Under the pieces are notes generated by a model that saw nothing but the letters and a program-made list of their open reading frames with translations, made no database searches and had not been told where the DNA came from. Shown in pieces: positions 6,961 through 38,364 of a stretch of 64,000 bases of DNA. Made by a program: the position numbers and the translations under genes. The stretch's first letter is position 1. Each line of letters begins with the position of its first letter. Source of the DNA: an uncultured Dokdonia sp. (GTDB lineage: Bacteria > Bacteroidota > Bacteroidia > Flavobacteriales > Flavobacteriaceae); assembly GCF_937910895.1 (NCBI RefSeq), contig NZ_CALEMI010000138.1, positions 5,280 to 69,279 of the forward strand, given 5' to 3'.

Positions 6961-6988
6961 TAAGACACTAAAAGTAGTATAAGGTCAC
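6961..6988 (-). promoter_or_regulatory. putative ECF-sigma promoter, site 1
   Basis: GTGAC-N17-GTCTTA, about 70 bp before the 6892 start. Confidence 0.7.
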
Positions 6989-6999
6989 ATTTTTTTTTT

Positions 7000-7013
7000 G
7001 CTTTCGCGAAAGC
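7000..7013. repeat. palindrome copy 2 (intergenic)
   Basis: Perfect 14-mer next to promoter site 1. Confidence 0.9.
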
Positions 7014-7118
7014 GTACCCAGCATAAACCCCAAATCATCTAGTGATACTCGTAAACCTATTTTCATAGGATTACTTATAACAACCATACTCTAGGATGTT
7101 TTTGCTTTATACTTTTTG

Positions 7119-8339
7119 TTAGCTTTTTATTTTGAGCGCCTTTTTCTTGTTATTCAATTGAAGACACTTTTCTGTAATAACAATCCAGAAAGGACTAATG
7201 ACGAGTGTAAGCGATATCAAACTAATCGTAAACTTATAGCCATAATCAGCAATGATACCTAAACTTAACGCTGTAGAGCTTAATAAAAAACTAAGTTCTC
7301 CTATCTGAGCTAGTAAAGCACCTCCTAACAAGGCTTCTTCCCAAGTACAGGAAAAGAAGCGTAAAATGACAGAATTCAAAAAATGGTTTGTTACATACAC
7401 AACCACTAAGACGAGTAAAATTGTAGACAAATGCTCTTCTAGAAAAACAAGGTCAATTTGTAAGCCTACACTTATAAAAAAGAAGGATACAAATAATACT
7501 CTAAAGGAATGTAATGTATCATGAATCCAATCTGTTTCTTTTGCCGCATTGATAATCATACCTCCTACAAAAGCACCAAGCGCTCCAGACAAGCCAAAGA
7601 GTAACGTGAATAAAGCACCTCCAAAACAGAGAAAAATTGCCATAAACACCTGTAGCTCATAATCACTTTCAATATGCTTTGCAAATGGAATATGCAGGCG
7701 TCCTTTTACATATATATAAATAAGCGTTGCCACAACCATAGTTGCCCCAATAATCATCAAAACAAGACTTTGAGTAGACTGTTCTTTTCCTCCCAATTGA
7801 GAGATGATAATTAACAAGGGGACTAAAGCTACATCTTGAGCTAATAAAATGCTCAATACGTTTTTACCTACTTTAGTCGTAATAAGCTGTTTGTCTTGAA
7901 GCAGTTTTATAACTACAGCAGAGCTGCTTAAGGCGATTACAAAACCTAGCACTATAGAACGTGCATAGGTCCAATCTATAAAATAACCGATAGTTAAAAC
8001 GATAATGACACTAAAAGATATTTGTGCTAATGTGCCTAAGACAGCAACCCTCCATCGTTTTACAAAATCAATAATATTAATTTCCATCCCTATAAAAAAG
8101 AGAAGGAGTATAATACCTAGTTCGCCTAATAAGTAAATAGATTCTTTATCTTCTATAAAACCAGCTCCATGCTCACCTAAAAGTACTCCTGTAATTATAT
8201 ACCCTATAATGTAGGTTTGATTGAATTTACGCAACACCATACTTAAACCAATAACGACTAACGCAAGGATAGATACCAAAATGATAATCCCATCAATAGC
8301 AGTAGAAGAAGTTAAAAGTGTTAAGAAGTATAAATTCAT
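7119..8339 (-). CDS. cation:proton antiporter, CPA2/Kef family
   Basis: About 12 TM; GELGIILLLFFIGME, LSSSAVVIKLL, QDVA, QIGELSF motifs. Confidence 0.9.
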   Translation of the reverse strand: MNLYFLTLLTSSTAIDGIIILVSILALVVIGLSMVLRKFNQTYIIGYIITGVLLGEHGAGFIEDKESIYLLGELGIILLLFFIGMEINIIDFVKRWRVAVLGTLAQISFSVIIVLTIGYFIDWTYARSIVLGFVIALSSSAVVIKLLQDKQLITTKVGKNVLSILLAQDVALVPLLIIISQLGGKEQSTQSLVLMIIGATMVVATLIYIYVKGRLHIPFAKHIESDYELQVFMAIFLCFGGALFTLLFGLSGALGAFVGGMIINAAKETDWIHDTLHSFRVLFVSFFFISVGLQIDLVFLEEHLSTILLVLVVVYVTNHFLNSVILRFFSCTWEEALLGGALLAQIGELSFLLSSTALSLGIIADYGYKFTISLISLTLVISPFWIVITEKCLQLNNKKKALKIKS

Positions 8340-8407
8340 TGGTTTTTAAAATAGTATCTTTTTTGAGATTTGGCTATTAAAAAGCTATAGATCTAACTTA
8401 AATATAA

Positions 8408-9103
8408 TTAATCAATACTAATTTCATCTTTATGTGTTGTCGCCTCAAAAGATTCAATAAATTTTAAATCATGAAACCAGTATAAAGATGAAATGACTTC
8501 AAAAGTGATCGTATTGCCTTCTGATCCTATTTTTCTGATTTGCCAGATAATGTCTTTTGCCTCTGTAAATGTTTCTCCCTCTAACTCCTCTTTAAAAAGT
8601 CGATGAATAAGAGTGTTTACTGGCATCCCTTTAATAAGCAATCTTAAGATAGCCGCTTCATTTTCTCCTTCAAAAACAGCTAATTCATTGGCGTTTTTTG
8701 CTGTAATAGTTACTTGAAATTGTACAGCTTCTGGATGAGGAAATTTCCCATTATATGCTTGATATAGAAACTGTCCAACATTAAAGAATTCTTCATGCAT
8801 GGAAAGGTCTGCGTATTCTTCCCAGATTTTTTCTTCAATCATCTCGTGAGAGAGATTGTTCTTTTGCCCCTCATTTAATCGATCACCAAAAACATAGTCT
8901 AGCATTATTTTTGCAGCTTCATCTGGCTCATTATCTGTGAGCGCCATCATGCACATTTCTTTTAAATCTGATGGTGCAATTTCTGAAGTATCACCATATT
9001 CCATTTGATCTAGAAGAGCTATATACTTCTGGTCCGTCCAAGCATTTTGTAGTTCATGAATGGTTTTAAATTTAGTGATATCGACGTTAAATAGTGTTTT
9101 CAT
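8408..9103 (-). CDS. conserved hypothetical acidic protein
   Basis: 231-aa ORF in operon position upstream of the CPA2 gene. Confidence 0.8.
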   Translation of the reverse strand: MKTLFNVDITKFKTIHELQNAWTDQKYIALLDQMEYGDTSEIAPSDLKEMCMMALTDNEPDEAAKIMLDYVFGDRLNEGQKNNLSHEMIEEKIWEEYADLSMHEEFFNVGQFLYQAYNGKFPHPEAVQFQVTITAKNANELAVFEGENEAAILRLLIKGMPVNTLIHRLFKEELEGETFTEAKDIIWQIRKIGSEGNTITFEVISSLYWFHDLKFIESFEATTHKDEISID

Positions 9104-9136
9104 TTTCTATAATACTATAAATAGGTTACTGATTGT

Positions 9137-9164
9137 TATGACACATCACTTTTAGAAAAGTCAC
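9137..9164 (-). promoter_or_regulatory. putative ECF-sigma promoter, site 2
   Basis: GTGAC-N17-GTCATA, about 35 bp before the 9103 start. Confidence 0.65.
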
Positions 9165-9229
9165 AATGGGATAGTTTCTATAATTTTAAAATACAATTTA
9201 CTCTTGAAGTAGTGAAAGCTGTGTACGAT

Positions 9230-9249
9230 CCTACCTGCTGGCAGACAGG
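9230..9249. repeat. Bacteroidota REP-like imperfect palindrome
   Basis: CCTACCTGCTGGCAGACAGG; the minus strand folds with G:T pairs; resembles CCTGCCTGCCGGCAGGCAGG-type repeats as I recall them. Confidence 0.5.
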
Positions 9250-9474
9250 AGCGCGAAATCGAACTTGTGAGATTCACGACTATAGGGAGAACGAAGCGTT
9301 AAAGCGTATAAATAATTTTTGGAAAAAGCTGACTAGGTATTCAACCAAATATATGTTCTTAATCTCCAAAGCAAGTGATATAGGAGATGCTAATTTAAAA
9401 TCCTTAAAAACCTTCGCGCCCACTGAATCGCAAGATTCATTCAACTAGCTATATTGAATTTATTACTTCGTAAC

Positions 9475-9488
9475 GCTTTCGCGAAAGC
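9475..9488. repeat. palindrome copy 3 (intergenic)
   Basis: Perfect 14-mer. Confidence 0.9.
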
Positions 9489-9512
9489 GCACTATGAAAA
9501 ATACGCATACGA

Positions 9513-10484
9513 TTATGGGGTATCTTTTGATATATGTATGATCGCATCTCCTTGATTTACAATTGGATATTGATTAATACATATCACATAACCCGCATAA
9601 AGTGCTTTCACAGGTTTTTCAAAATCTCCAAAAGGGTCTGAAATACTACCTAGTTTATCGCCTTTATGAATGTGTGCACCTAGCTGCACGTGAGAATGAA
9701 ACATTCCAGAATATTTTGCTCTGATCCAAGAAGAATGATTAATTATGGTAGGCTTTATGGTTGGACTTTCCATTGTCTCTAACTCCTTTGTAAAATCTCT
9801 CATTCCGAGATGTTGCATCACTCTAAGTGCTCCAGAAACTCCTGATTTTGTAACGTCGTCATCTAAAAACAACGTTTTCCCTCCTTCAAATAACAATACT
9901 TTTTTACCTAATTTACGTAGAGTTTCTCTGAAGGATTTTTCTTTATTTTTTGATTGTAATATAAAAGGACATCCAAATACTTCTGCCAATTTCATACTCT
10001 CATCATCTCCTTGACTTACTCTTATTTGAGGAGCGTTAAAACGGCTATCTCCTCCAGTATGATAATCAATACAATACTCGGCTAATGGAGATATTTCTTT
10101 AATGATATGATAAGCAAACCTACTTGCTAGTGAACCACGCAGACTGCCTGGAAAGACTCTGTTTAAATCACGTCCATCTGGAAACTCACGTGTTTTATTG
10201 AGAAAACCAAAAATATTGACCACAGGAATACAGATAACCATGCCTCGCTGAGGTTTATTATATCCTTTGGACACCAGCTGCCTAACGATCTCGATACCAT
10301 TTACCTCATTGCCGTGAATCCCTCCTGTTATTAATAAGGTAGGCCCATCTTCCTTTGCCCTCTCTACAATAATGGGCACTTCGATCTTGGTGCGTGTGTG
10401 CAACTTTGCAATATCAAGATTTATTTGTACTCCCTTTCCATTAGATATGGCACGGCCTAATATTTCGATTTTTTTATTCTGCAT
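9513..10484 (-). CDS. succinylglutamate desuccinylase/aspartoacylase (M14-like) family protein
   Basis: [31 protein letters not shown] motifs. Start probably ATG at 10484 (or 10496), overlapping the rimK stop, not 10541. Confidence 0.9.
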
Positions 10485-11349
10485 TTCTTTCGACATATTT
10501 AATAATTTGCCCAGCGATATCTTTACCTGTAGCAGCTTCAATACCTTCTAATCCTGGTGATGAGTTCACCTCCAATATTAAAGGACCGCGCTCAGATTGT
10601 AACATATCTACCCCTGCGATACCCAGTCCCAATACTTTTGCTGCTTTTAATGCTGCATTCTCTTCTTCATCTGTAAGTGTTATAATATCGGCAGAACCTC
10701 CACGATGCAGGTTGGATCTAAACTCCCCTTCTTTTCCTTGTCGCTTCATAGCTCCTACTACAACCCCATCTACAACAAATACTCTTAAATCTGCTCCTTT
10801 TGCTTCTTTGATAAATTCTTGAACAATTACACGGGCTTGAAGACCATTAAAAGCTTCTAGCATAGACTCCGCAGAATTTTGATTATCGGCTAATACGACC
10901 CCAATCCCTTGGGTACCTTCCAACAGCTTTATGACTAGAGGCGCACCGCCTACTTTAGCGACAACACTGCCCACATCTTTTGAATAATTACTAAAGACTG
11001 TTTTGGGTAAATCCAAACCTGCTCTTGATAATATTTGCAAGCTTCTAAGTTTATCTCTAGATCTTACCAACGCTTGTGACTCGGTAGCACTAAAAACTTT
11101 CATCATCTCAAACTGTCTTACTACGGCGGTTCCAAAAAACGTAACAGAAGCACCTATTCTAGGAATTACTCCATCAATACCTGTAATTTCAGTTCCTCTA
11201 TAAATGATTCCTGGCTTCTTTTTTTCGATAACTAAATCACACTTTGTATGATCAATGACCAACATTTCATGACCTTTTTTTTCGCCAGCTTCCACCAACC
11301 TCTTAGTTGAATATAGATTTGGATTTGCAGACAGTATTACTAATTTCAT
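10474..11349 (-). CDS. rimK: alpha-L-glutamate ligase RimK
   Basis: ATP-grasp motifs: [50 protein letters not shown]. Confidence 0.93.
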
Positions 11350-11677: not shown

Positions 11678-12943
11678 ATGATAAAAACATTAAAAATAGG
11701 AGTCCTCGCCTTTATTTGCATGGCTTTTACGCTTCCTGTAAATGATACGGTCTATCCAATAGACGGGTATCAATATTCAGGAATCAAACGTTTAAAGCAT
11801 TTACAGCTTAGTATTTCTGGCGATCTGCCTGATGCTAAATTGCCTGCTGGTGCTTATAAAAGCATTAATGATATCAAGCTAAATTTGCTTTCGCGAAAGC
11901 AAAATACAACAGAAAGTATTTTAGTAGAAGATGCCGCATTACAAAAGAAAATCGATGCACTTTTCCCTCGTTTAGACAATAGCTACTCGGTGACTGTATT
12001 GGATATTTCTAAGCCTGACAGTTTACGATATGCACAGCAAAATGAGAGCAGAGGATATCAGCCTGGGAGCGTTGGCAAATTAGTAGTAGTGACCGCTTTG
12101 TTTGATCAATTAGCAAAAATATATCCTACTGATTATGACAAACGTGTATCTCTTTTAAAAACGAAAATAGTAAAAGGTGGAAACTGGGTGTTAACAGATG
12201 AGCATACCATTCCAGTATTTAATATAGAAACCAATAAATTGGTAAAACGTCAAGCTGTAGCTAGTGACGTTTTTTCACTCTTTGAATGGGCAGATCACGC
12301 GCTATCTGTAAGTAATAATGGGGCAGCAAGTGTGGTATGGAGAGAGGCTTTATTAATGGCTGCTTTTGGAGATAAATATCCAACTATGACTCAAGAAGAT
12401 GCTGATGCATACTTTAAAGCAGGACCTAAAAATGAGATTACAGACCTAGCCGTTTCTATTGTAAACCAACCCTTAAGAGATTTGGGTATTACAGAAGAGG
12501 AGTGGCGTTTAGGAACTTTTTTTACAAGAGGCGTAAACCCGTACGTGGGTAGTAAAGGAGGAAGCATAGGCTCTCCATTAGGTCTCATGAAATGGATGCT
12601 GCAACTAGAACAAGGCAAGATTGTAGACGAAAAATCAAGTCTTGAAATAAAGCGTTTAATGTATATGACCGATAGAAGAATACGCTATGCACAAGCCCCA
12701 GAATTGCGTGATGCTGCTGTCTATTTTAAATCAGGGAGTTTGTATAAATGTGATAAAACTAAGGGCGAGGGGTGTGGTAAATACAAAGGAAATGTTTTTA
12801 ACTATATGAACTCTGTTGCCATTATAGAGCATACAGATGGTTCAAAATACATGGTCTGCTTAATGACTAACGTATTGCGTAAAAACTCAGCGGGAGATCA
12901 CTTAGCATTAGCGAGTAGAATAGATAAAGTTATACGAAATTAA
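11678..12943 (+). CDS. serine hydrolase, class A beta-lactamase-like fold
   Basis: Signal peptide; SVGK (SxxK), SNN (SxN), KSG. Confidence 0.85.
   Translation: MIKTLKIGVLAFICMAFTLPVNDTVYPIDGYQYSGIKRLKHLQLSISGDLPDAKLPAGAYKSINDIKLNLLSRKQNTTESILVEDAALQKKIDALFPRLDNSYSVTVLDISKPDSLRYAQQNESRGYQPGSVGKLVVVTALFDQLAKIYPTDYDKRVSLLKTKIVKGGNWVLTDEHTIPVFNIETNKLVKRQAVASDVFSLFEWADHALSVSNNGAASVVWREALLMAAFGDKYPTMTQEDADAYFKAGPKNEITDLAVSIVNQPLRDLGITEEEWRLGTFFTRGVNPYVGSKGGSIGSPLGLMKWMLQLEQGKIVDEKSSLEIKRLMYMTDRRIRYAQAPELRDAAVYFKSGSLYKCDKTKGEGCGKYKGNVFNYMNSVAIIEHTDGSKYMVCLMTNVLRKNSAGDHLALASRIDKVIRN
11887..11900. repeat. palindrome copy 4 (in CDS, LSRKQ)
   Basis: Perfect 14-mer, extends to TTTGCTTTCGCGAAAGCAAA. Confidence 0.9.
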
Positions 12944-12946
12944 AGC

Positions 12947-13891
12947 ATGGTAGTATGGATCATTTTTATTAGCATTATTCTAGTATTTCTGGCATTAGAT
13001 TTAGGAGTGTTTAATAAAGTTCCTCATGTAATTAGTACCAGAGAAGCTTCTATATGGACAGGTATTTGGGTAAGTATTGGATTACTTTTTTCATTTGTTA
13101 TCTTTTTTATCTTTAAAAATAATTGGGTAGCAAATCCTAATCACTTAGCACCATGGGATGCATCTGTTACGTACGTGACAGGATATTTAGTAGAGTTATC
13201 TCTAAGTTTGGACAATATTTTTGTAATCTCTGTCATTTTTAGCTCTTTTAAAATTCCGCTAAAATTTCAGCATAGAGTTCTTTTTTGGGGAATTTTGGGA
13301 GCGCTGTTTTTTAGAGCACTCATGATATTTTTTGGGGTATTACTTATTCAAAAAATTAGTTGGATTACTTATATTTTTGGAGCTTTCTTGATTTTTACAG
13401 CATTGAAAATGCTTTTTTCTAAAGAAGAAAAAGAATATGATCCACAGCAATCTTTTGTTTTTAAAATGGTACGTAAAGTATTCCCGATAACTTCCGAAAT
13501 TAAAGATGAACGCTTTTTTGTAAAGAAGAAATATCTGCGAGTGGCAACTCCTTTATTTTTAGTACTTATTATTGTTGAATTTACAGATGTGCTTTTTGCA
13601 TTAGATAGTATTCCAGCTATTTTAGCGATTACATCAGATTCCTTTTTAGTGTTTACATCCAATATATTAGCCATCATGGGATTACGATCTATGTACTTTT
13701 TTCTAAGCAATATGACAACAAAATTTCATTACTTAAAATATAGTCTTGTAGCCATTTTAGTATTTGTGGGAATCAAACTAATAATGACTCATCTTTTTCA
13801 TTTTCCTGAATGGGTATCTCTAAGTTTTATTATTTTATCCTTAAGTATAGGTGTTCTGGCATCTCTTAAATCAAAACAGGATATTTCTTAA
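12947..13891 (+). CDS. TerC/Alx family membrane protein
   Basis: ELSLSLDNIFV, QHRVLFWGILGA, TDVLFALDSIPA, GLRSMYF. Confidence 0.92.
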   Translation: MVVWIIFISIILVFLALDLGVFNKVPHVISTREASIWTGIWVSIGLLFSFVIFFIFKNNWVANPNHLAPWDASVTYVTGYLVELSLSLDNIFVISVIFSSFKIPLKFQHRVLFWGILGALFFRALMIFFGVLLIQKISWITYIFGAFLIFTALKMLFSKEEKEYDPQQSFVFKMVRKVFPITSEIKDERFFVKKKYLRVATPLFLVLIIVEFTDVLFALDSIPAILAITSDSFLVFTSNILAIMGLRSMYFFLSNMTTKFHYLKYSLVAILVFVGIKLIMTHLFHFPEWVSLSFIILSLSIGVLASLKSKQDIS

Positions 13892-13903
13892 GTAAGATAG
13901 AAA

Positions 13904-14263
13904 ATGGAAGAAAAATATATTTTAATTGTCAATCAGGATATTATTGTTTCTTCTATAATGCAAAGATACTTGGTAGCTGATACCTTAACTTTTAGTTTAG
14001 CACAACGCTTTTTTGAAGTAGAGGAATTACTTAAAAAACAGAACGTTGATTTGGTAATTACAGATCTTATTATAGACGGCTTATCTACAAACGAATACAT
14101 TGCTTTTTTAAATAAGAAGTTACCTAATGTGCCTATTATTGTGACATGTCACATGGATCATACATCTATAAAAGCAGAAATTGAATTATTAGGAGCAACC
14201 ACGTCTATACCATTCCCTTTAAAGTTAAGCAAATTGAAGGCTACACTAAAACATTATTTATGA
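13904..14263 (+). CDS. single-domain response regulator receiver, atypical
   Basis: DLVITDL phospho-Asp context present; acidic pocket is NQD and the conserved Lys is absent (SIPFP). Confidence 0.75.
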   Translation: MEEKYILIVNQDIIVSSIMQRYLVADTLTFSLAQRFFEVEELLKKQNVDLVITDLIIDGLSTNEYIAFLNKKLPNVPIIVTCHMDHTSIKAEIELLGATTSIPFPLKLSKLKATLKHYL

Positions 14264-15189
14264 TGCAGGAACAATTATTATACACTATAGCCTTAGGTTT
14301 AGTTATTTTCTTAGTTTTTTTATGGGTCGTAATTGGGTATTCTATTATTATCAGACAATCGAGATATGTAACTCGCTCCAAAATAGATGCATTCTTTATA
14401 CAAAAACTATCCATGGAATACGCAGAAAGCAATGCACTGAACGTGCCAACGCACTTACATAATGATCAAACTATTGCTATCAAACTAAATAATGGGAGAA
14501 AACTACAATATGCATCAAGTATACTTATAAGAGTTCAGGATACATTTTATTCTGAAAATGACAACATGATCGAACAAGTTTGTAAAGAAAGTGGTATTTA
14601 TAAAGAGATAAATAAAAAGATAAAAAAGCAGAATTGGTATCCAAAAGCGATGGCTATTTGGTTGTCTTATGAACTGGATTTGAAGAGCCATCTAACGTGT
14701 ATCAAACCACTAATAAGCCATAAGAATGTTCTGGTACGACGAGAAGCTCAAATAGGATTGGTTCGGTTTTGGGGCTGGAAAAGCCTCAAAATACTACCAC
14801 AATTAAAATATCCCATCTCTTTATGGCAACAAATACGCATTATTGAAAACCTAATGGATTATTTTCCTATTCCAGACCTAACGTATATGAATAAAGCGTT
14901 GGAAACTCAAAATCCGTTTGGTATTGAACTTTTAATACGTCTTATACGGCGATTTGAAATGCATGCATATAAAAATTATGTGATTGAACAATTAGCGCAC
15001 CCTAATAAAAATGTATCAGAAACAGCTATAGAAGTACTTGAAACGTTTGATTTAAATGCAGACCAACTCTATAAAATAGAAAATCTATTAACATTACTAC
15101 CAACAGCAAATCAACCCATAAGAATCTCACAATTGATAGCTTTGCAACAAGTACCTACAAATAAAGAAAAGCAGCATGGAAATAATTAA
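14260..15189 (+). CDS. membrane-anchored HEAT-repeat protein
   Basis: N-terminal TM helix; HEAT-like segments (ISHKNVLVRREAQIGLV, LAHPNKNVSETAIEVL). Confidence 0.75.
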   Translation: MMQEQLLYTIALGLVIFLVFLWVVIGYSIIIRQSRYVTRSKIDAFFIQKLSMEYAESNALNVPTHLHNDQTIAIKLNNGRKLQYASSILIRVQDTFYSENDNMIEQVCKESGIYKEINKKIKKQNWYPKAMAIWLSYELDLKSHLTCIKPLISHKNVLVRREAQIGLVRFWGWKSLKILPQLKYPISLWQQIRIIENLMDYFPIPDLTYMNKALETQNPFGIELLIRLIRRFEMHAYKNYVIEQLAHPNKNVSETAIEVLETFDLNADQLYKIENLLTLLPTANQPIRISQLIALQQVPTNKEKQHGNN

Positions 15190-16591
15190 AAACGGGATTG
15201 ACTATTTTTTTCTCGTATATGGAATCGCACTATTTATATGCTATTTCTTTTTAATTTTATTTGCAATAGCTGCCATTCATAAAAATAAGAAAAGAAGCTT
15301 ATTTTTAAATGAAAATGATATGAAAGGAGCTATTGACTTACCTAGTATAAGTCTCATTGCACCTGCCTATAATGAAGGGAAATCCATTATTATTAACGTA
15401 TACTCATTACTATCTATCCAATATCCCTATTATGAACTCATTATTGTAAATGATGGAAGTAAAGACGATTCATTACAACAACTTATCGCAGAGTTTAAAC
15501 TTGAAATAGCCCCTTTTTATCAAAGTGACCAACATATTCAACACGCTACTGTTATTGGTATTTATAAAAGTACTGATCCGAAATACAAGCATCTTACCAT
15601 TATAAATAAACAAAATGGGGGTCGAGCAGATGCTCTTAATTGTGGTATTGCTTACGCGAAAACGAACTTAGTCCTCTGTACAGATGCCGACTGTATTATT
15701 GAACAAGATGCCTTACTTAAAATGGTACGCCCTTATCTTGAAGAATTAGACAAAGAGATTATTGCCTGCGGAGGTGCCATAGGTATCGCTAATGATTCAA
15801 TTATAGAAAATGGAATATTGAAAGAATTAAAAATACCTAAGAGTATTCTTGCCAGAATTCAAGTTGTAGAATATATAAGAGCCTTTTTATTAGGAAGAAT
15901 GGCTTGGCATCACATAGATGGATTGATGCTGGTTTCTGGCGCTTTTGGATTATATCCTAGGTCAAGAGTTCTAGAAGTAGGTGGTTTCGATAAAAATACA
16001 GTAGGAGAAGATCTAGAACTATGCATCAGATTGCGTAGTCATATGGAACAATTACGTGAACCTTATGAAGTGGTTTACATTCCCGAAACACTATGTTGGA
16101 CAGAAGCTCCTTCTACACGTAAAGTGTATATCACTCAACGGGATCGTTGGGCCCGAGGTTTGTGGGAAACTATCAAAAAACATCGTCAGCTCTTTTTTAA
16201 TCCAAAATACCGTACTATGGGAATGCTTTTCTTTCCATATTGGGTCTTTTTTGAATTAGGTGCTCCCATTGTAGAGTTTTTGGGGCTTATTTGCTTGATT
16301 GTACTTACGGTATTCGGATTAATTAATTGGCCTGTTGCTATTGCGTTATTTGTAGTAGTATATTTAATAGGCTGTATATTTTCTACCGCAGCTATATTAT
16401 TATATACCGTTAATTTTAAACATTATGCAAAAGGCTCCATGGTTATAAAATTACTTCTAGCAGCATATCTAGAATCTTTTATATCTCACCCTATAATGCT
16501 CTATGCAGAAATAAAGGGCTATTTTAAAAAGATATTTGGTATTAAATCTACTTGGGGAACAATGACAAGAAAAGGGTTCACAACTAAGTGA
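15176..16591 (+). CDS. processive glycosyltransferase family 2 (PgaC/IcaA/YaiP-like synthase)
   Basis: APAYNE, NDGSKD, DADC, GED, QRDRW (QxxRW); flanking TM helices. Confidence 0.9.
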   Translation: MEIIKNGIDYFFLVYGIALFICYFFLILFAIAAIHKNKKRSLFLNENDMKGAIDLPSISLIAPAYNEGKSIIINVYSLLSIQYPYYELIIVNDGSKDDSLQQLIAEFKLEIAPFYQSDQHIQHATVIGIYKSTDPKYKHLTIINKQNGGRADALNCGIAYAKTNLVLCTDADCIIEQDALLKMVRPYLEELDKEIIACGGAIGIANDSIIENGILKELKIPKSILARIQVVEYIRAFLLGRMAWHHIDGLMLVSGAFGLYPRSRVLEVGGFDKNTVGEDLELCIRLRSHMEQLREPYEVVYIPETLCWTEAPSTRKVYITQRDRWARGLWETIKKHRQLFFNPKYRTMGMLFFPYWVFFELGAPIVEFLGLICLIVLTVFGLINWPVAIALFVVVYLIGCIFSTAAILLYTVNFKHYAKGSMVIKLLLAAYLESFISHPIMLYAEIKGYFKKIFGIKSTWGTMTRKGFTTK

Positions 16592-17881: not shown

Positions 17882-17891
17882 TACAAATGTA

Positions 17892-20711: not shown

Positions 20712-20715
20712 TTAT

Positions 20716-21726: not shown

Positions 21727-21732
21727 ATTAAA

Positions 21733-26016: not shown

Positions 26017-26021
26017 GTTGT

Positions 26022-29811: not shown

Positions 29812-30700
29812 CTACTTTTTATCAACTATTTTTTGATAAGCTTCGACTAGCTTGCTACGAGCTCTTTTCAATCGCATTTTTACAGTATTTTACTAATATT
29901 TGATAATCTTTTTAATTGTCCTTAGAGTAGTATCATCTTGATATTTTAATAGTTAAATAGCTTTTTCTTGAAGTGGTATTATATCTAATACCTTTTTAAG
30001 TAAGTCAATTCAAAGTTCAAAGAGATTTTTATCTGTAACATCTTCTATTCCAGATATACGATACATATGAAAATCTATTAAATAGGTTATTTTAGATTTT
30101 TTTCTTGTGATCTCTATTTAACGTGAGTTCGATATAAGCTTTTCTTCTTTTTCTCCAGTATACGACAGAATGTAAGTTCTGGGCGAGATGAGGCGGGGCA
30201 ATTTCCGTTAAAAAATTTTTGAAGCCTTGGAAACGACAAAGTGTTAGCTTTGGGCGAGGAGAAGCGATGGCAGAAACTTCTTGTGGTTTTTCGCTTCAAG
30301 CGAAAAAATACCTAAGAAATCGAAGATTCATAAGTTCCAAAATTTAAGATAGAAATCACACGCATAAAAAGCGTCTTTTCTTTTGGTTCGGTTTTCTTTG
30401 AACGAGCAAAGAAAATGAAAAAATAACCTGAATTTAAGCTGATTACATTAAATTTTAACGTAATCACTTTAAAAGACTTACTAATTTTTTAAGTCGAACT
30501 CACGTTATTCACATAGTTTACACAAAAGTTATACATAAAACCAAGTAGAAAATTTAGACTCTCCCTGAAAAGTAGATAGCTTAATTATTTTTTTTTAAAC
30601 ATCATGAATAAGGTCTTCTGCTTCTGATTGGTTTTTTGAAAAATAGTAGCATTGATTGTATATTTTTTTTGAATAGCGATCGTAAAGAATAGAAAAAGGA
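29812..30700 (-). pseudogene. ECF sigma factor pseudogene split by a MITE
   Basis: Region 2 remnant LYDRYSKKIYNQCYYFSKNQSEAEDLIHDV*..TFQGESKFSTWF..NFCVNYVN at 30510-30700; region 4 remnant EDVTDKNLFEL*IDLLKK..EKAI*LLKYQDD..VKMRLKRARSKL at 29812-30116. Colinear with the intact sigma at 37513. Confidence 0.9.
30119..30507. mobile_element. 389-bp non-autonomous MITE with 14-bp perfect TIRs
   Basis: TAACGTGAGTTCGA (30119-30132) and TCGAACTCACGTTA (30494-30507), flanked by TT on each side; removing it restores in-frame N-Y-V-N-R-D. Confidence 0.88.
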
Positions 30701-31200
30701 ATCTGTATTATTAGAACCTCTAAGACTAGCGTGAGATATCTTCATTTTTTTACATCAAGTGAGGCTGGGTCCTGTAAGTCAGATAATGTACTATCTGAAT
30801 TCCCTTCTAGAGATAGCTATGTAGAATCGGTGAGTATTACTGTTGTAGAAACCGCTATGACACTCCCTTAAAATCTGATCTACCACTCATAGAAATTACG
30901 GTGTTCTCCGTACGGGCTTTTAGTTTACCCCCTGAATTATCTTGCATAGTCACTGTCATCCTATCTGCTTTGACATCTAACTCAAACATATTAGATTAAT
31001 ATACTTGAATATCCAATTGTTCAGACTCGACGAGACTTTTACCTTCTACACGAGCATCATTATGAAGAGTACTGTACTCAAGATTTATAAAATCAAGAGT
31101 AATCGCTAATTTTCTTTCACTACTTGTAATTTTATAAGAACTATAAATTGTAAGAATGTTTGTTTTTATAACAACCGAATAATCCACAGGTTTTAAAGAA
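30701..31200 (-). pseudogene. GIN-domain (DUF2807) pseudogene
   Basis: RKLAITLDFINLE..NDARVEG..*SNMFELDVK..NSGGKLKAR..DST*LSLEGNSDS, colinear with 36434-37267; two in-frame stops, a frameshift, both ends lost. Confidence 0.88.
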
Positions 31201-31248: not shown

Positions 31249-32517
31249 CTAGCTATTATCTTGCTCTATCGCAGGTGCTTTCCATTTGATTGTTTTTACC
31301 TCATTTTGGTTTGCTATGTTCAACGCTTTAGAGCTTCGTTTTTTGTCAAAAATCATAGCGCCTGTCATAATCAAGCTAGTTCCTATAATCACAAATAATA
31401 AGATTCCAGGTTCAAAAGCGGCTATTTGTGCTTCTACAGGAATGGCATAAAAAAGTAATACGGTAATCAAACCTCTTGGTGCTATAAATAACTGTGGCAA
31501 AATATCCTTTCCTACAAATATTCTAAGTATAATAAAACGTATAGCATAAATAGAAGCAATAATTAACGTACTTATAATCGCAACATCAAAATTAAAAAGG
31601 GAAGATACCACGATCGTAATTCCAAAAACAACAAAGAAAAACGTACGCACAACAAAAGCGGTTTCTGCTGTGATTGTATGTAACTCGTGATAGATATAAT
31701 GTGCTTTTTCAAAATGTAAAAACTTCTTTAACTTTCCAGCAAAAAATAATTTCATATTAGCAATCACCAATCCAAAGATTAAAATGATAAGAAGTGATGA
31801 CAAGTGCATTTTTTTACCTAATGCATACAGTAAGAGTAGTACTGCAATTAGTAGGAATAATTTAACATGACTTTTTATTTTCTGAAAAATAAGAATCAAA
31901 GCATAGCTAGCTACTAAAGAAATCACAATAGTCAATATAATGTTACCTGTAAAACCAATCACCCCTGAGTCTTCTGCAGGGTTTAATTTGCCCGTCAGGA
32001 AGTAAAACATCATGATGCCAACGATATCTGAAAAGGTACTTTCATAGATATGAAATTCCTTTTTTGCTACTTTAAGACCACTCACACTTGGAATAATAAT
32101 CGCACTAGAAAGTATAGATAATGGGGTGGCATATAGCCAAGCTGACTCCATTGTCATTCCGGGAATAAAGTTATAGAGAATCAATGCTGCAATCCATGCA
32201 GAAACGATAAGTCCTATAATAGCAATAGCAAACGACTTTAGGATAGGCATTAACTTCTCTCGTTTAAGCTCTAATTCTAATGCAGCTTCTAACACAATCA
32301 TAATCAGACCTACAATACCAAGTACCTCTAGAATAGGTAAAAACTTTATTTCTCCAGCATTAAAATATTTTAATAAATATTGTAATCCTACCCCAAATAT
32401 AATAAGCATCAATACAGCAGGAATATTCGTTTTTTTAGAAATACTATTGAATAAAAATGAAACAATAATAATGACAGACACCTCAATGATGAGGTTATAG
32501 GATGATAATACTTCCAT
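31249..32517 (-). CDS. cation:proton antiporter, CPA1/NhaP-like
   Basis: About 12 TM; IVLEAALEL, YESTFSDIVG, APRGLITVLL. Confidence 0.85.
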   Translation of the reverse strand: MEVLSSYNLIIEVSVIIIVSFLFNSISKKTNIPAVLMLIIFGVGLQYLLKYFNAGEIKFLPILEVLGIVGLIMIVLEAALELELKREKLMPILKSFAIAIIGLIVSAWIAALILYNFIPGMTMESAWLYATPLSILSSAIIIPSVSGLKVAKKEFHIYESTFSDIVGIMMFYFLTGKLNPAEDSGVIGFTGNIILTIVISLVASYALILIFQKIKSHVKLFLLIAVLLLLYALGKKMHLSSLLIILIFGLVIANMKLFFAGKLKKFLHFEKAHYIYHELHTITAETAFVVRTFFFVVFGITIVVSSLFNFDVAIISTLIIASIYAIRFIILRIFVGKDILPQLFIAPRGLITVLLFYAIPVEAQIAAFEPGILLFVIIGTSLIMTGAMIFDKKRSSKALNIANQNEVKTIKWKAPAIEQDNS

Positions 32518-33233
32518 TAGTTGGTTGTGTTGAGTGTTTTGTTAGAAATAATATTTTTTTCTTCAAGGAAGGCGATGAGATCTTCTGAAGAGGCTCCTTT
32601 TTCTAATGAATACTGAAGCTTGTATACGTGATCTTGACCTGAAGATTTTATCGTAGGAAACTCTTCATTATTTAATATCGGGTTGTCAAATAAAATATCT
32701 AGAATCGTATCTTTAGGTAGCTGTGATTCTATATATAAGGTTTGCCTTAGAAGGCTATTTTCAATTGATTTTACTAAGAATCCTTTTTGCTCAATCTCTG
32801 AATAGTTCATGTAACGTTCACCACTTTCCGTATTCATGACAATACCAAAAGCAAGCATCCGTTTGATTTCTCCTTGAAATGTATTGGACTCTAATACAGC
32901 TCTTTCTTTAATTAAAGGATTGGTTTTTAAAACAATCCCATTTATATAGTTATTAATATGCTTAAAGCCAAAAACTCCGATGACCACCAGAAATATGGTA
33001 TGGTTTAAGGGATTAATAGAGATAAGGTCTAGTAATAATAAGAGTACGGCAAAAGGCTTAAAAAACAAAAGCGCTCTTTTCAATTGATCTGTAATTTTTC
33101 TATTGGTAGCGTTTTTCTTTGTAAAACGCTTCACAGCATACACAAACGCTTTTAGTAACCAATAGCAGAGTATCAGCAAGATAAGTAATGCAAAAAAGCC
33201 CTCCCAGGTATTTATGGTATCCATTGTTTCCAT
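32517..33233 (-). CDS. hypothetical membrane protein, possibly a divergent MscS-like subunit
   Basis: Three N-terminal TM helices followed by a beta-rich region (FQGEIKRMLAFGIVMNT). Confidence 0.7.
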   Translation of the reverse strand: METMDTINTWEGFFALLILLILCYWLLKAFVYAVKRFTKKNATNRKITDQLKRALLFFKPFAVLLLLLDLISINPLNHTIFLVVIGVFGFKHINNYINGIVLKTNPLIKERAVLESNTFQGEIKRMLAFGIVMNTESGERYMNYSEIEQKGFLVKSIENSLLRQTLYIESQLPKDTILDILFDNPILNNEEFPTIKSSGQDHVYKLQYSLEKGASSEDLIAFLEEKNIISNKTLNTTN

Positions 33234-35608
33234 TAGTTTAAGGTTCCTCTATAGATTAAAATATCTTTTACATCATTTATGATGACTGGATTAATATAGA
33301 GTTGTGATCTTTGATTTCTAAGAAGTACTTTGAGATTTGTCAATCGTTTTAAACTTGATTTGTAGTTACTCTCAAAGTGCGTTTCTACATAGGTTTTTAA
33401 CCGTAGTTCGTGCATCTCTTTATGAAGAAATACAAACTTTAAAACAATAACCTCTTCAAGTGTAAAGAAGTCATAAAAAGAGTATCCTTTAGGGTTGTAA
33501 ATAACTTGGTTGTCTTCTATCAGCGTAGTTCCGTAGGTCCATGATTGAAGTACTTCACCTATATTATAGTGACAGTCTCTAGCAAGTTTTAATACCTGCG
33601 ATTCTATTTGTTTTTTTGAAAGTATTTCTTTTTTTTCTGAAACAAGCACTTTATGTGAGGCACCATGTCGTATTAAAAATGCTTTATGAATTTCTTCAAA
33701 AGAAGCTTTTTCTAAGGTAATGTGTGTACTAAAACTATCTGTAAATGATAAACGCTGATCTAATAGTTTTCGCATTTGTCTGGAAATACTAACAATGATC
33801 AGTACCCTATCTGATTCAGATTCTACAAAACGTAATAACGCTCTCATATTTTCGAGCAATGAATGCGTGTCATCTTGCCAAAACTCTAAATCATCAATCA
33901 CTAATAATGGTCGGATACCTGACAGATTTTTTTTGATGTTTCGGAGTGCTTCCCTAATATTTTTTGTGGTCTGTATTTTTCTTCCTTCAAAAGGGATACT
34001 ACTGTCTACCTTTAAGAAAATGGTATGTCTTTTAAAGTGTTTCTGTGAGATATTTTCTAAGAATGTAGACTTCCCACTTAACGGACTTCCTTCTAACAAA
34101 ACCGCTTTATTAAAACCGTTGTCCCAATCTGTTTTAGCTTTCGCGAAAGCGGACTCTTGCGATTCTCTACTAACAATAAATTGGTCTCCTATAAAATTCT
34201 TATTTAAAAATAAGGTGTCATAGTGTGCATTTGCTTCTTTAAACATCCTGTAAGAAACACAACTGATGGATTGATCTATGAGACTCTGATTTGAAAATAA
34301 TGTACCGCTTTCATATTTAGAATTCAGTGCATTTATTCGTTTTGTGATACTATTTTTTACAGCTGTAAAAATAGATCCTTGACTACTTGCAAATTGCGAT
34401 AATGAAGATTGTATAGAAACATCTAAAAAATCTTCATCACTGTATATAAGTGTTGCTTGAAATTGCTCCTCAATCTTACCTGTGATTTCTTCAATAGTTT
34501 TATGTAACTCTTCATCCTGAATAGTAAGCGTTTGATGCACGTTTTTTAATGCTTGTAATTGAGAAGGCATCGCACCAAGTGTATCATGGCCTTTCTCTAC
34601 AAGAAGACTACTTTTAAGATTTAATAAGCTATGATTAAAAAGCGTCTCCATCGTATTTTTTTGTTCCCACAAATCCATAAATAAGGGAATGATCTCAAAA
34701 TCAAACCATTTTTTTACGGCTTTGTTAAAATCAATATGTCTCGTAAGTAACAGACCATTTTCTGTAGCGACGGGTAGCGTTATTGTGGTGAGTACTTTTA
34801 CCTTTTCTTCTAAGTTTTTTGTATACTCGGTTTGTACAAGGTCTTTTGGGTTTTCTATAATGGCATGAGTTATCCAAGTGATCCGTTTAGGAATATCACT
34901 TGTGGTCGTCATATCATTGATAGACCCAATGGTCTCTCCAAGCAATTTAATTACTTTTTTAGACGTATCACTAGTATACAAAGCAGTATCTATAGTATAT
35001 TGCCCAATTTTTTTAAATGAAGTAATCGTCCTCGTCATTGGACCATGACTTTGTATGATTTCTTTAATTTGCTGGGTAGTTTTTATAAACTGTTCGCTGT
35101 AGACAGGCCAAGCATTTTTTTGATGCCTAATGTTATCACGTAATTTTTCATTCGTTTTTTGAGAATCATATATGGCTGCTCGTTCTTCTTTGAGATGTTG
35201 TATTGCATATTGCGTTGCTTCTGTGATGATCTGTACAGAAGCGACTACATGATTGTTTACGCTAACGTTATCTATACCTCCTTCAAGTTCTTTAAGTTCA
35301 GCAATTTCTAACTGAAGCATCACATCTCTATGCAATAAGAATACGTCTTTATATATTTTGGAAAAAGCATAGTGTAGCAAGTACACTTCATTTGTAGGAA
35401 CATCATGAGATGCGTTTATACGATCAAATTCTTGATTTCCTATTGCTAAGTAATCACTAGAAAGTTGTAAAAAATCTTCTTTGATGTACTGTTGTAATGC
35501 TTCGCTGGAACCTATTGTAGATAAGGTGGCTACGTAGTGTTCCATTTTTTTGAGAAACATTTCTGAAGCAACTATATCATCTACTTCTAATGATTGATTT
35601 TCCTGCAT
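33233..35608 (-). CDS. P-loop ATP-binding protein with a long helical N-terminus
   Basis: Walker A GSPLSGKST, Walker B LLVIDDLE. Confidence 0.8.
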   Translation of the reverse strand: MQENQSLEVDDIVASEMFLKKMEHYVATLSTIGSSEALQQYIKEDFLQLSSDYLAIGNQEFDRINASHDVPTNEVYLLHYAFSKIYKDVFLLHRDVMLQLEIAELKELEGGIDNVSVNNHVVASVQIITEATQYAIQHLKEERAAIYDSQKTNEKLRDNIRHQKNAWPVYSEQFIKTTQQIKEIIQSHGPMTRTITSFKKIGQYTIDTALYTSDTSKKVIKLLGETIGSINDMTTTSDIPKRITWITHAIIENPKDLVQTEYTKNLEEKVKVLTTITLPVATENGLLLTRHIDFNKAVKKWFDFEIIPLFMDLWEQKNTMETLFNHSLLNLKSSLLVEKGHDTLGAMPSQLQALKNVHQTLTIQDEELHKTIEEITGKIEEQFQATLIYSDEDFLDVSIQSSLSQFASSQGSIFTAVKNSITKRINALNSKYESGTLFSNQSLIDQSISCVSYRMFKEANAHYDTLFLNKNFIGDQFIVSRESQESAFAKAKTDWDNGFNKAVLLEGSPLSGKSTFLENISQKHFKRHTIFLKVDSSIPFEGRKIQTTKNIREALRNIKKNLSGIRPLLVIDDLEFWQDDTHSLLENMRALLRFVESESDRVLIIVSISRQMRKLLDQRLSFTDSFSTHITLEKASFEEIHKAFLIRHGASHKVLVSEKKEILSKKQIESQVLKLARDCHYNIGEVLQSWTYGTTLIEDNQVIYNPKGYSFYDFFTLEEVIVLKFVFLHKEMHELRLKTYVETHFESNYKSSLKRLTNLKVLLRNQRSQLYINPVIINDVKDILIYRGTLN
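34137..34150. repeat. palindrome copy 6 (in CDS, AFAKA)
   Basis: Perfect 14-mer. Confidence 0.9.
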
Positions 35609-35663
35609 AGTGTGGGTTCCTATTTGTACAACATTTTCTTTAAAGATAAAACCTATATTTGAA

Positions 35664-36295: not shown

Positions 36296-36370
36296 ATACT
36301 AATTTTCAACTAGTTATCTTTTTACAGAAAGTTCTAATACACAGTAATCCTATACTGTTTTATAAAAAAA

Positions 36371-36392
36371 GAGCCTTCAAATTTGAAGGCTC
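36371..36392 (-). terminator. intrinsic terminator of the GIN gene
   Basis: GAGCCTTCAA-AT-TTGAAGGCTC with an adjacent A7 (T7 on minus strand). Confidence 0.75.
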
Positions 36393-36433
36393 CCGAAGAG
36401 ATATACTTTTAGAATTACCAAAGATACCCGCTC

Positions 36434-37267
36434 CTATTTTTTTATGATTTTTGATTTATCTGTTAATCCTTTCACTTCAATTTTAGGATCTCCATACACA
36501 TAAATATTACTTTTCCCCTCTGCAAATAATTCTAGATCCTTTCCTGCATATACATACACATCTGCATTATTTGAAGCATATAAGTTTACAGATGAAACTT
36601 TCATTTTCTTAGCATCAAGTTCTGCTCCATCTTTCAAATTAAAAGCAGCACTGTCTGAATCTCCTTCTAACTTTAACTGTGCTGTATCTGTTAAATTAAC
36701 TGTTGTTTCTTCTCCAACAATCGCCGCCTTAAGATCAGTCCTATCATTCATTGTAATTATTGCATTTGTAGCTCTTGCCTTTAATTTACCACCAGCATTG
36801 CGTTGCATCATAATGATTAATTCTTCTACTTCAATATCTATTTCAAATACACTAGAATCAAAGGCATTAATATATAATACTTCAGATTCAATTCGTCCTT
36901 CCCCTTCAATCTTAGCATCATTTTTTAGGGTAATGTGTTCTATATTCATAAAATCTAAGCTTATTTCAAGTTTCCTACTGCTTGTAATTTCGTTAGATGT
37001 ATAAATTCTTAAAACACTATCTATTACTTTAAACTGAACAATATCTTGAAGATTTTTATCTGTCGTTAATGTATACCCATTTTGCTCACCTTGCACTAAG
37101 GTTACTTCAAGTGCATCATCAATTTCTAAAGAATTAAAACTAGCCATTATGGTGTTTGTCATAGTGACCACATCTTTATCACCTTTTATTTTAGGTTTCT
37201 TTTGTGCGTATATACTTGTTGATATGATAAGAAATACGATAAGTATTATTGATTTTTTCATGTTCAT
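36434..37267 (-). CDS. head GIN-domain (DUF2807) secreted protein
   Basis: Signal peptide; KPKIKGDKDVV, beta-helix-like repeats, GKSNIYVYGDP. Confidence 0.85.
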   Translation of the reverse strand: MNMKKSIILIVFLIISTSIYAQKKPKIKGDKDVVTMTNTIMASFNSLEIDDALEVTLVQGEQNGYTLTTDKNLQDIVQFKVIDSVLRIYTSNEITSSRKLEISLDFMNIEHITLKNDAKIEGEGRIESEVLYINAFDSSVFEIDIEVEELIIMMQRNAGGKLKARATNAIITMNDRTDLKAAIVGEETTVNLTDTAQLKLEGDSDSAAFNLKDGAELDAKKMKVSSVNLYASNNADVYVYAGKDLELFAEGKSNIYVYGDPKIEVKGLTDKSKIIKK

Positions 37268-37305
37268 TTTAATTATTAAAAACCATATTAGGGTCTATAC
37301 ACATC

Positions 37306-37333
37306 TAAGACACCATATATTTTAAAAAGTCAC
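37306..37333 (-). promoter_or_regulatory. putative ECF-sigma promoter, site 8
   Basis: GTGAC-N17-GTCTTA, 39 bp before the 37267 start. Confidence 0.7.
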
Positions 37334-37352
37334 TTTCTAGTTTGGTTTTTTT

Positions 37353-37366
37353 GCTTTCGCGAAAGC
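37353..37366. repeat. palindrome copy 7 (divergent intergenic)
   Basis: Perfect 14-mer, extends to 22 bp. Confidence 0.9.
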
Positions 37367-37512
37367 AAAACCCTTCTCTTTATAAGTAATCGCCTTAAAA
37401 TCGAATAATCAAGTGGTAATACACTATAAAAGAAATGAGGTGTTTTTGTTTGATACGGTCTATTATTTTTTACCTTTAGATCATTAAATAACACGACGCT
37501 CCAACCAATATC

Positions 37513-38136
37513 ATGGGTTTTTTAAACAAAAATTTTCTGGTTCTTTTCAGCACAACCACTAGTGTTTTAAAGAAGTCTAAAGAACTTTCTGATGCCGAGT
37601 TAGTCGCTCAAATTGTCGCTACAAACAACACGTTACTATTTAGTACGCTCTACGATCGCTATAGTAAGAAAGTGTATAATAAATGTTACAGTTTTGCTCG
37701 TAATGAAGACGAAGCAGAAGATTTAACGCAGGATGTTTTTCTAAAATTATTTACAAAGCTGAATACGTTTAAAGGAACTGCAAAATTTTCTACTTGGCTA
37801 TATGCATTTACCTATAATTTTTGTGCTAACTACGTAAATAGAGATAAGGAGCATAAACTGAGTAAGGAATCTGATACGATGGATGACCACGAGTATCACT
37901 TATCTCATATAGAAGACATTCAGGAAGAGGAACTTTTTGATTTAAAAGCATCTAAGCTAGAAAAAGCACTTAATCGTATTGATCCTGAAGACAAAGCGAT
38001 CTTATTACTAAAATATCAGGATGATAGTTCTGTAAAAGAAATTCAAGCAGTATTAAAAATTGGAGAAAGTGCTGTTAAAATGCGTCTTAAAAGAGCACGC
38101 ATACGTGTAGTAGAAGAACATAATAAAATAGAATAA
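37513..38136 (+). CDS. ECF RNA polymerase sigma-70 factor
   Basis: Region 2 AEDLTQDVFLKL..KFSTWLY; region 4 LLLKYQDDSSVKEI..AVKMRLKRAR. Confidence 0.93.
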   Translation: MGFLNKNFLVLFSTTTSVLKKSKELSDAELVAQIVATNNTLLFSTLYDRYSKKVYNKCYSFARNEDEAEDLTQDVFLKLFTKLNTFKGTAKFSTWLYAFTYNFCANYVNRDKEHKLSKESDTMDDHEYHLSHIEDIQEEELFDLKASKLEKALNRIDPEDKAILLLKYQDDSSVKEIQAVLKIGESAVKMRLKRARIRVVEEHNKIE

Positions 38137-38138
38137 AC

Positions 38139-38330
38139 TTGAAAAAAAATCCATTTAAAGAAATAGCTACTCACAAAGAGACACCTCCTGAACTTAAAAA
38201 AAAGGTGCTGGGAGAGATTGCGTCTATAGGTTTGCTAAGTGATATGGTAGATCTTTTTTCAATAAAATTTGCTGCTGTTATCGAAAGTGCCTTAAAACCA
38301 TCAAAAGAAGCTGTTACTAAGAAAAAATAA
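38139..38330 (+). CDS. small protein, KNPFKEI family copy 1
   Basis: 63 aa directly after sigma; paralog of the next gene. Confidence 0.75.
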   Translation: MKKNPFKEIATHKETPPELKKKVLGEIASIGLLSDMVDLFSIKFAAVIESALKPSKEAVTKKK

Positions 38331-38336
38331 ATATAA

Positions 38337-38364
38337 GTGACTTACATTATTTTTCTGTGTCTCA
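38337..38364 (+). promoter_or_regulatory. putative ECF-sigma promoter, site 9
   Basis: GTGAC-N17-GTCTCA, 26 bp before the ATG at 38391. Confidence 0.7.

Follow-up and report, generated by a model that had tools for sequence, protein, structure and literature searches.

What reads the element GTGAC-N16/17-GTCT(T/C)A, which recurs before one operon after another in a stretch of DNA from an uncultured Dokdonia sp. (contig NZ_CALEMI010000138.1 of assembly GCF_937910895.1)? We call the whole analysed stretch of 64,000 nucleotides the window, and count all positions from its first letter. A sequence-only reading of this DNA had proposed that nine such elements are promoters of a sigma factor of the ECF (extracytoplasmic function) type, and that the sigma gene at 37513 drives the genes behind them. 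Promoters of ECF (group 4) sigma factors generally combine a conserved -35 box, a 16-17 nt spacer and a GTC/TCT-type -10 box near the transcription start. Our analysis makes it likely that the elements are promoters read by the 37513 sigma, and that they drive a clustered regulon.

The element and the block of genes behind it

The pattern GTGAC-N16/17-GTCW has 10 matches in the window, whereas 100 dinucleotide-preserving randomisations of the same DNA gave 0.67 ± 0.84 (3 at most). Across the whole assembly (4.81 Mb, 169 contigs, 35.6% G+C) this loose pattern matches 49 times, and the 39 matches outside the window correspond to the chance rate. We trained a two-block weight matrix on the nine sites first listed (P1-P9 below); it scored those sites at 23.9-30.1 bits and a tenth site, P10, which was absent from the training set, at 21.6 bits. 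Beyond the training sites, only P10 and a site on contig C68 (24.4 bits) reached 20 bits or more genome-wide, with the next-best score at 18.8 bits; 10 of the 11 genome matches of at least 21 bits fall inside 37.2 kb of the 4.8-Mb genome. The sites and the operons behind them are as follows, with coordinates spanning the full box-to-box element and distances running from the -10 hexamer to the first start codon (ORF, open reading frame).

P1, 6961-6988 (-), GTGAC-N17-GTCTTA, 29.4 bits, 68 nt to start: a 120-aa ORF without assigned function (6530-6892), then CorA (5273-6337), same strand
P2, 9137-9164 (-), GTGAC-N17-GTCATA, 25.8 bits, 33 nt to start: a 231-aa gene without assigned function (8408-9103), then a CPA2-type cation/H+ antiporter (7119-8339)
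P3, 11504-11531 (-), GTGAC-N17-GTCTGT, 23.9 bits, 154 nt to start: a RimK-like ATP-grasp protein (10474-11349), then an AstE/AspA-like deacylase (9513-10541)
P4, 11577-11603 (+), GTGAC-N16-GTCTCA, 29.2 bits, 74 nt to start: a five-gene operon (11678-16591) for a class A beta-lactamase fold, TerC/Alx, a receiver domain, a HEAT protein and a GT2 synthase
P5, 22660-22687 (-), GTGAC-N17-GTCTTA, 27.6 bits, 27 nt to start: a four-gene operon (16628-22632) for a beta-lactamase-like protein, CNNM/CBS, a TLC/MFS-HEAT transporter and a YaiO barrel
P6, 27120-27146 (-), GTGAC-N16-GTCTTA, 30.1 bits, 36 nt to start: a four-gene operon (22923-27083) for a PLP fold-II enzyme, DUF1611, an enolase-family epimerase and a PiT-like transporter
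P7, 35664-35691 (-), GTGAC-N17-GTCTCA, 26.8 bits, 55 nt to start: a three-gene operon (31249-35608) for a 791-aa AAA/STAND-like protein, a 238-aa protein without assigned function and a Na_H_Exchanger-family protein
P8, 37306-37333 (-), GTGAC-N17-GTCTTA, 27.7 bits, 38 nt to start: a DUF2807 (GIN-domain) protein (36434-37267), divergent from the sigma gene
P9, 38337-38364 (+), GTGAC-N17-GTCTCA, 27.3 bits, 26 nt to start: small protein copy 2 (38391-38585), an MscS-like channel of 276 aa (38597-39427) and a TerB-like protein (39514-39942)
P10, 44161-44188 (-), GTGAC-N17-GTCTTA, 21.6 bits, 129 nt to start: a 99-aa acidic ORF (43732-44031), NUDIX (43277-43696), GNAT-CN_hydrolase (41525-43051) and Zn-protease-RimK (40080-41450)

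P1-P9 are the sites of the sequence-only reading, and all of them lie where it placed them, in the orientations that it gave; its distances to the start codon agree with ours to within about a nucleotide (at rimK, 154 rather than 155 nt). Its statement that intergenic DNA outside 6.9-38.4 kb holds no further site is literally true, but the intragenic P10 lies beyond that range. The clustered block that it described does exist, but is not confined to the roughly 33 kb that it assigned and extends to about 44.2 kb. Between 6.5 and 44.2 kb the genes are packed into tight runs, with gaps mostly of 12 nt or less (12 nt at most within the P4 operon), and nearly every gap between operons from 6.5 to 44 kb holds a site. 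The intergenic sites P1-P9 all point at the start of an operon 26-154 nt away. In total this island comprises about ten operons and roughly 33 genes over some 37 kb (6.5 to 44.2 kb), with the ion, osmotic and membrane functions that had been listed for it; the CorA protein passes the TIGR00383 equivalog cut-off. The genes for PBP1a (27461) and a 174-aa MscS-like protein (35771) have no upstream motif in a scan down to 10 bits, nor does the sigma gene.

When the window sites are aligned on their boxes, an A-rich stretch lies 5' of GTGAC, C/T and then T are favoured 3' of it, (T/G)G(T/G) precedes GTCT and (T/C)AA comes after; in three sites the -10 box reads GGGTCT. No likeness is seen among them outside the boxes and their flanking preferences. 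Since they share nothing beyond the boxes and the A-rich upstream stretch, they are not copies of a repeat element. An Rfam search of the window found no known RNA family, so the 154-nt leader of rimK and the 129-nt leader behind P10 carry no known riboswitch. The G+C content of the island (0.31-0.38) is not distinct from that of its flanks, and composition therefore gives no sign of recent transfer.

Conservation of the element was followed in 84 related loci (L-numbers below), each with flanks of up to 10 kb. Close homologs of the 37513 sigma (55-83% identity) are abundant in marine Flavobacteriaceae, and the loci whose sigma is closest to that of the window, from Kordia, Aquimarina, Croceitalea sp. 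MTPC5, Arenibacter, Sungkyunkwania and several metagenome bins, hold 1-5 strong sites per 20 kb when scored with the window-trained matrix. Together the related loci (1.57 Mb) give 60 matches that score 20 bits or more; the 4.77 Mb of this genome outside the island give 1. Only 3 of the 60 fall inside long ORFs, and an ATG-initiated ORF starts 22-60 nt downstream in 35 of the 58 that have a downstream ORF. A scan of the genome and of orthologous upstream regions had been proposed as a check on the sequence-only reading; it produced one comparable match outside the island, and orthologs in several genera do carry the motif.

The genes fronted by the motif recur across genera. They include the orthologs of DUF2807, the TerB-like protein, the small protein with MscS, the PLP enzyme (L007, L008, L009, L016) and the 791-aa AAA protein, the P7 operon being represented in L003, L004 and L081. 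In relatives the motif also fronts orthologs of RimK (L082 and L083/L084), CNNM (L082), the beta-lactamase-like protein of the P5 operon (L012), the 120-aa gene (L016) and CN_hydrolase, whose ortholog in L083/L084 carries a motif of its own. The P9-type arrangement, together with the motif, is found again in L002, L009, L010, L014, L016, L081 and L083/84. An unbiased alignment of nine upstream regions of DUF2807 orthologs has a mean column identity of 52%, and its invariant columns lie almost all in AA-GTGAC, in G-GTCT-A and in the start-codon region. The intergenic DNA around the boxes has diverged between these genera. On sequence grounds, this is a clean phylogenetic footprint.

Several features of the island and of the genome are recorded here in their own right. 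The sole strong match outside the island, C68:15821-15848 (-), covers the stop codon of an ABC-ATPase-like gene; 3' of it lie a REP-like palindrome and then about 400 nt without a clear ORF, with no obvious gene downstream. The site could be a chance match, or a small-RNA promoter. The palindrome GCTTTCGCGAAAGC is a very abundant REP-like hairpin element with 879 copies in the 4.8-Mb genome, and its 14-nt copies in the window begin at 4351, 7000, 9475, 11887, 22802, 34137, 37353, 46015 and 55665. Two copies lie just upstream of P1 and P8, and the palindrome is spread genome-wide, independently of the motif. The 231-aa (8408-9103) and 238-aa (32517-33233) genes, both on the minus strand, are each followed by the gene for a cation/H+ exchanger, with a motif promoter in front, a pairing found again in L081-L084; their products may be accessory subunits or regulators of the exchangers. 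P10 sits within the last 155 nt of a deoxyhypusine-synthase-like gene (44034-45008), and the 99-aa ORF that directly follows this gene (43732-44031, minus strand) is highly acidic and has no Pfam match. In L081 (13445-19784), from a close relative, the island borders on a fragment of an IS66-family transposase, a Cap4-nuclease-like gene and a TraG/TrwB coupling protein, a hint of mobility.

Which regulator reads the element

The candidate reader and the features next to it or related to it are these.

37513-38136 (+), ECF sigma factor of 207 aa, with regions 2 and 4 only
38139-38330 (+), small protein copy 1, 63 aa, pattern NPF...KVL/M...AxxKL, beginning 2 nt after the sigma stop codon
29827-31187 (-), a decayed sigma copy (about 29827-30702) and a decayed DUF2807 copy (about 30855-31187)

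The 37513 sigma matches Pfam Sigma70_r2 (1.6e-14) and Sigma70_r4_2 (1.7e-10), and the only model whose cut-off it passes is the generic ECF one (TIGR02937 sigma70-ECF, 94.7 bits, cut-off 42.9). The nearest solved chains are those of SigW, SigH and sigma-E (E about 1e-12 to the sigma-E chains). By tblastn it is the sole intact member of its family in this genome. The decayed copy retains 45-67% identity in three frame-shifted pieces, and the DUF2807-like fragment beside it appears in the ORF list; both remnants fall within 1.46 kb of DNA that holds no long ORF and lies downstream of the P7 operon. L081 has an intact second pair of sigma and DUF2807 genes.

The usual neighbours of this sigma are a small protein and a channel. 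In most of the 84 loci a 56-66-aa protein follows a few nucleotides after the sigma gene, with the conserved pattern NPF...EVP...KVMxDIAxAKL, and then an MscS-like channel of about 275 aa. Homologs of small protein copy 2 occur in 82 of the 84 loci and of the channel in 76, and the sigma-small-MscS triad is kept in at least 76. In L046 (Flagellimonas, 11752-12300) a ClpP protease gene comes after the triad. Neither of the two small proteins of the window (63-64 aa) matched a Pfam or NCBIfam model, and by sequence there is no canonical anti-sigma domain; copy 1 is a candidate regulator of the sigma. Regions 2.3-2.4 (KFSTWLYxFTYNxCxNYVNRDK) and 4.2 (ESAVKMRLKRA) of the sigma are nearly invariant in all branches of the family, and the whole family is therefore expected to read the same promoter.

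The proposal that the 37513 sigma serves this block fits three observations. The boxes are the only conserved columns upstream of orthologs in several genera, they cluster around orthologous sigma genes, and, in the relaxed form GTGAC-N17/18-TCTNA, they stand at the 5' end of the sigma-small-MscS operon in about 64 of 66 distant loci (Flagellimonas, Croceivirga, Maribacter, Saonia and others). Away from this operon end, the relaxed motif occurs at chance level in the 20 kb around the sigma of these distant loci, and its position before the sigma operon looks like autoregulation. Finding a motif at the operon of the sigma itself is the standard route for assigning a promoter to an ECF sigma factor (PMC7776599).

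In the distant branch (L011-L080, about 9995-10085, plus strand) the predicted promoter overlaps the opening codons of the sigma ORF as annotated. Annotation starts this ORF at the GTG of the -35 box, with GTGAC at 50 of 60 recognised N-termini and the peptide VTFLKRLFLILIN. In each of the 54 distant loci examined, a further in-frame start codon lies between the -10 box and the sigma core; about 48 of these loci have TTG for it, at codon 18/19, where the conserved Leu is always encoded by TTG and the other Leu codons of the linker vary. This suggests that the distant branch makes nested long and short sigma isoforms. The corresponding segment of the window (37513-37590) was compared with these 5' ends: in the clade of the window the sigma starts with ATG, the boxes are lost and only the long form is present.

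A number of points weigh against assigning the elements to the 37513 sigma. Upstream of its gene no motif reaches 10 bits, such that the link between this sigma and the motif rests on adjacency, on conservation at the level of the family and on the lack of another candidate. The assignment as a promoter is a prediction from sequence. In the distant branch, the site 5' of the sigma gene overlaps a conserved ORF, and its conservation could be partly that of coding sequence. Orthologous sites are partly inherited and are hence not independent events, and clustering in relatives was seen in locus neighbourhoods of about 20 kb rather than in complete genomes. P10 is intragenic, scores lowest of the ten and is less secure than the other nine. 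Because its gene is without such a promoter, the 37513 sigma is not positively autoregulated via the motif; the gene is presumably transcribed from another, housekeeping promoter. Autoregulation of ECF sigma factors is common but not universal.

The missing motif at the sigma gene also lends weight to the first alternative, namely that the elements are ECF promoters of another sigma, either the paralog whose decayed copy lies at 29.8-30.7 kb, which would make the sites a fading relic, or one of the approximately 17 other ECF factors. A paralog remnant does lie within the island, and in Aquimarina it is a second, shorter family member that has a non-coding copy of the motif 25-29 nt before its start. 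We nevertheless regard this alternative as improbable. All ten window sites are still near consensus, and orthologous sites are kept in L083/L084, whose 20-kb neighbourhood shows one family sigma only. The DNA-reading regions of the two paralog types are nearly identical, and both should therefore read the motif. None of the 17 other ECF-like genes of this genome has the motif within 600 nt upstream; since no other ECF gene has it and the other family member is a pseudogene, the 37513 sigma is the only plausible reader.

A second alternative, which we consider more improbable still, is that the element is a transcription-factor site, for example a GTGAC/GTGTC direct repeat, its halves about 21 bp apart, to which a LytTR- or OmpR-type response regulator would bind. 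GTGAC and GTGTC are alike and about two helical turns apart, genes for LytTR regulators and His_kinase proteins flank the sigma in Kordia antarctica, and a Crp-like gene lies within the L081 island. However, the three GGGTCT -10 boxes break the repeat, no LytTR or Crp gene is found among the scanned island genes of the window, and the constant partner over the 84 loci is the sigma, not a regulator. Orientation is strictly toward the gene, and at many sites only 22-38 nt separate the element from the start codon, too few to fit another core promoter in between, so that the element would itself be a promoter rather than an activator site. Finally, although the genome is AT-rich and the abundant palindrome GCTTTCGCGAAAGC adjoins two sites, a chance or dispersed-repeat (MITE, REP) origin of the sites is refuted by statistics and conservation, since none of the 100 shuffles reached 4 matches, no likeness extends beyond the boxes, the palindrome is independent of the motif and orthologous positions are conserved across genera.

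Kinship with SigX and other ECF systems

Assignment of the elements to the 37513 sigma invites comparison with SigX of Pseudomonas aeruginosa (for SigX and ECF102 we drew on PMC7641640, PMC7826278 and PMC4362757). The SigX locus consists of cmaX (CorA-like), cfrX (84 aa, without assigned function, a suspected regulator), cmpX (MscS-type), sigX and oprF; cfrX and cmpX are transcribed from a SigX-dependent promoter, with cmaX in the same operon, and the SigX promoter consensus is not precisely defined (PMC7641640). A mechanosensitive channel is conserved in several ECF102 subgroups (PMC7826278). Both systems thus place an ECF sigma beside an MscS-type channel and a small protein that is a predicted regulator, and in both the small gene and the channel are under a sigma-dependent promoter, which here is the predicted P9. 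The window regulon, like the SigX locus with CmaX, includes a CorA protein, downstream of P1, but 31 kb from the sigma. SigX has been studied under low osmolarity and membrane perturbation, and the window regulon has an ion and osmotic gene content.

The differences are equally clear. SigX (PRK09640) is the best specific NCBIfam model for the 37513 sigma, but the score of 101.4 bits lies below the cut-off of 194 and does not make it a SigX equivalog. Gene order is sigma-small-channel in the window as opposed to cmaX-cfrX-cmpX-sigX-oprF in Pseudomonas. No OmpA/OprF family match was found among the scanned island ORFs, where a YaiO barrel is present instead, and the 84-aa CfrX compares with window proteins of 63-64 aa that have no Pfam or NCBIfam match. 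The Pseudomonas SigX regulon is large, dispersed and rich in fatty-acid genes, whereas that of the window would be a single block with about ten promoters and many genes for cation transport.

A flavobacterial relative of SigX has been noted before. Todor et al. (2020) predict that a flavobacterial SigX homolog regulates nearby homologs of cmpX and oprF, and suggest that Pseudomonas obtained SigX from a flavobacterium (PMC7776599). That homolog very likely belongs to the same sigma family as the sigma of the window. As far as the accessible text goes, the prediction names only the nearby cmpX and oprF homologs and does not mention an island of ten promoters and about 33 genes. The view that nothing of this kind had been described in Flavobacteria therefore holds for the expanded clustered regulon, of which we found no description in the literature searched, but not for the sigma, whose kind had already been predicted in that paper. 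Given the 2020 prediction, we see here a new variant rather than a new kind of system; what appears to be new is the contiguous island of about ten promoters and 33 genes in this clade, together with its lost autoregulation.

The geometry of the element is that of a recognised class, comparable to the AlgU promoter, GAACTT-N16/17-TCTNN (PMC7641640), and the sequence-only reading was right in this respect. As with sigma-E of Escherichia coli (GGAACTT) and AlgU of P. aeruginosa, the window sites are bipartite, with a 16-17 nt spacer and a (G)TCT-centred -10 box, and they share a need for near-consensus boxes and A-rich upstream DNA. Unlike those promoters, they have GTGAC rather than GGAAC/GAAC as the -35 box, the sigma is only distantly related, and the regulon content is different. 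The putative isoforms of the distant branch resemble sigma-R/sigma-R' and SigH of Actinobacteria (PMC7826278) in their nested starts, their long and short sigma forms and a single self-dependent promoter. There, however, the self-dependent promoter yields the long, unstable form, whereas the promoter predicted inside the long ORF of the distant branch would yield the short form. The window's own sigma, with its long form only, does not follow the sigma-R/SigH scheme. An ECF motif of Flavobacterium psychrophilum, with a CGT-type -10 box upstream of type IX secretion system (T9SS) genes (PMC9723704), was considered and belongs to a different system.

A possible circuit and what it would mean

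The ancestral state was probably a sigma, an NPF protein of about 60 aa and an MscS-like channel, with the motif only at the 5' end of that operon, the arrangement seen in most genera. In the clade with Kordia, Aquimarina and some Croceitalea, the promoter would then have been recruited before about ten neighbouring operons. The genes recruited would include those for cation/H+ antiporters, CorA, CNNM, TerC/Alx and MscS channels, as well as RimK-type ligases and other glutamate-modifying enzymes, a GT2/YaiO polysaccharide system and a DUF2807 surface protein, and the island at 6.5-44.2 kb would hold essentially the whole regulon. In this model, the small NPF protein, perhaps together with the channel, keeps the sigma inactive, and membrane tension or an ionic or osmotic disturbance would free the sigma, such that the island is switched on. 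Small protein copy 1 would be co-produced with the sigma, and copy 2 and the channel would come from the sigma-dependent promoter, which could provide negative feedback. That the signal is osmotic, ionic or related to membrane tension is, in our judgement, an evenly balanced call; both the signal and the role of the small proteins are suggested by gene content and by the analogy with SigX, and this too counts against the model.

A more far-reaching and rather doubtful possibility is that the whole forms a self-contained mechanosensing circuit. The MscS-like channel and the NPF protein might together gate the sigma by a non-canonical anti-sigma mechanism, and the output regulon (cation flux, channels, glutamate-derived solutes and exopolysaccharide) might have been gathered round its sensor and reshuffled as a cassette among marine Flavobacteriaceae. 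Under the same tentative proposal, the circuit would correspond to the original role of SigX, still enigmatic in Pseudomonas, and in the sister branch an autoregulatory promoter within the first sigma codons could give rise to two isoforms from nested GTG and TTG starts.

The sharp consensus makes the regulon directly testable, and the element and its sigma may offer an orthogonal promoter-sigma pair for the genetics of Bacteroidota. An ECF sigma factor usually controls either one adjacent operon or dispersed genes; the roughly ten operons that are predicted here to share one ECF promoter lie in a single unbroken block, and its gene content points to cation, osmotic and membrane-tension homeostasis. 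To our knowledge, neither the signal that SigX answers to nor its regulator has become clear in two decades. Because a flavobacterial origin of SigX has been proposed (PMC7776599), the predicted regulon would offer a cleaner view of what the sigma-small-protein-MscS module is for.

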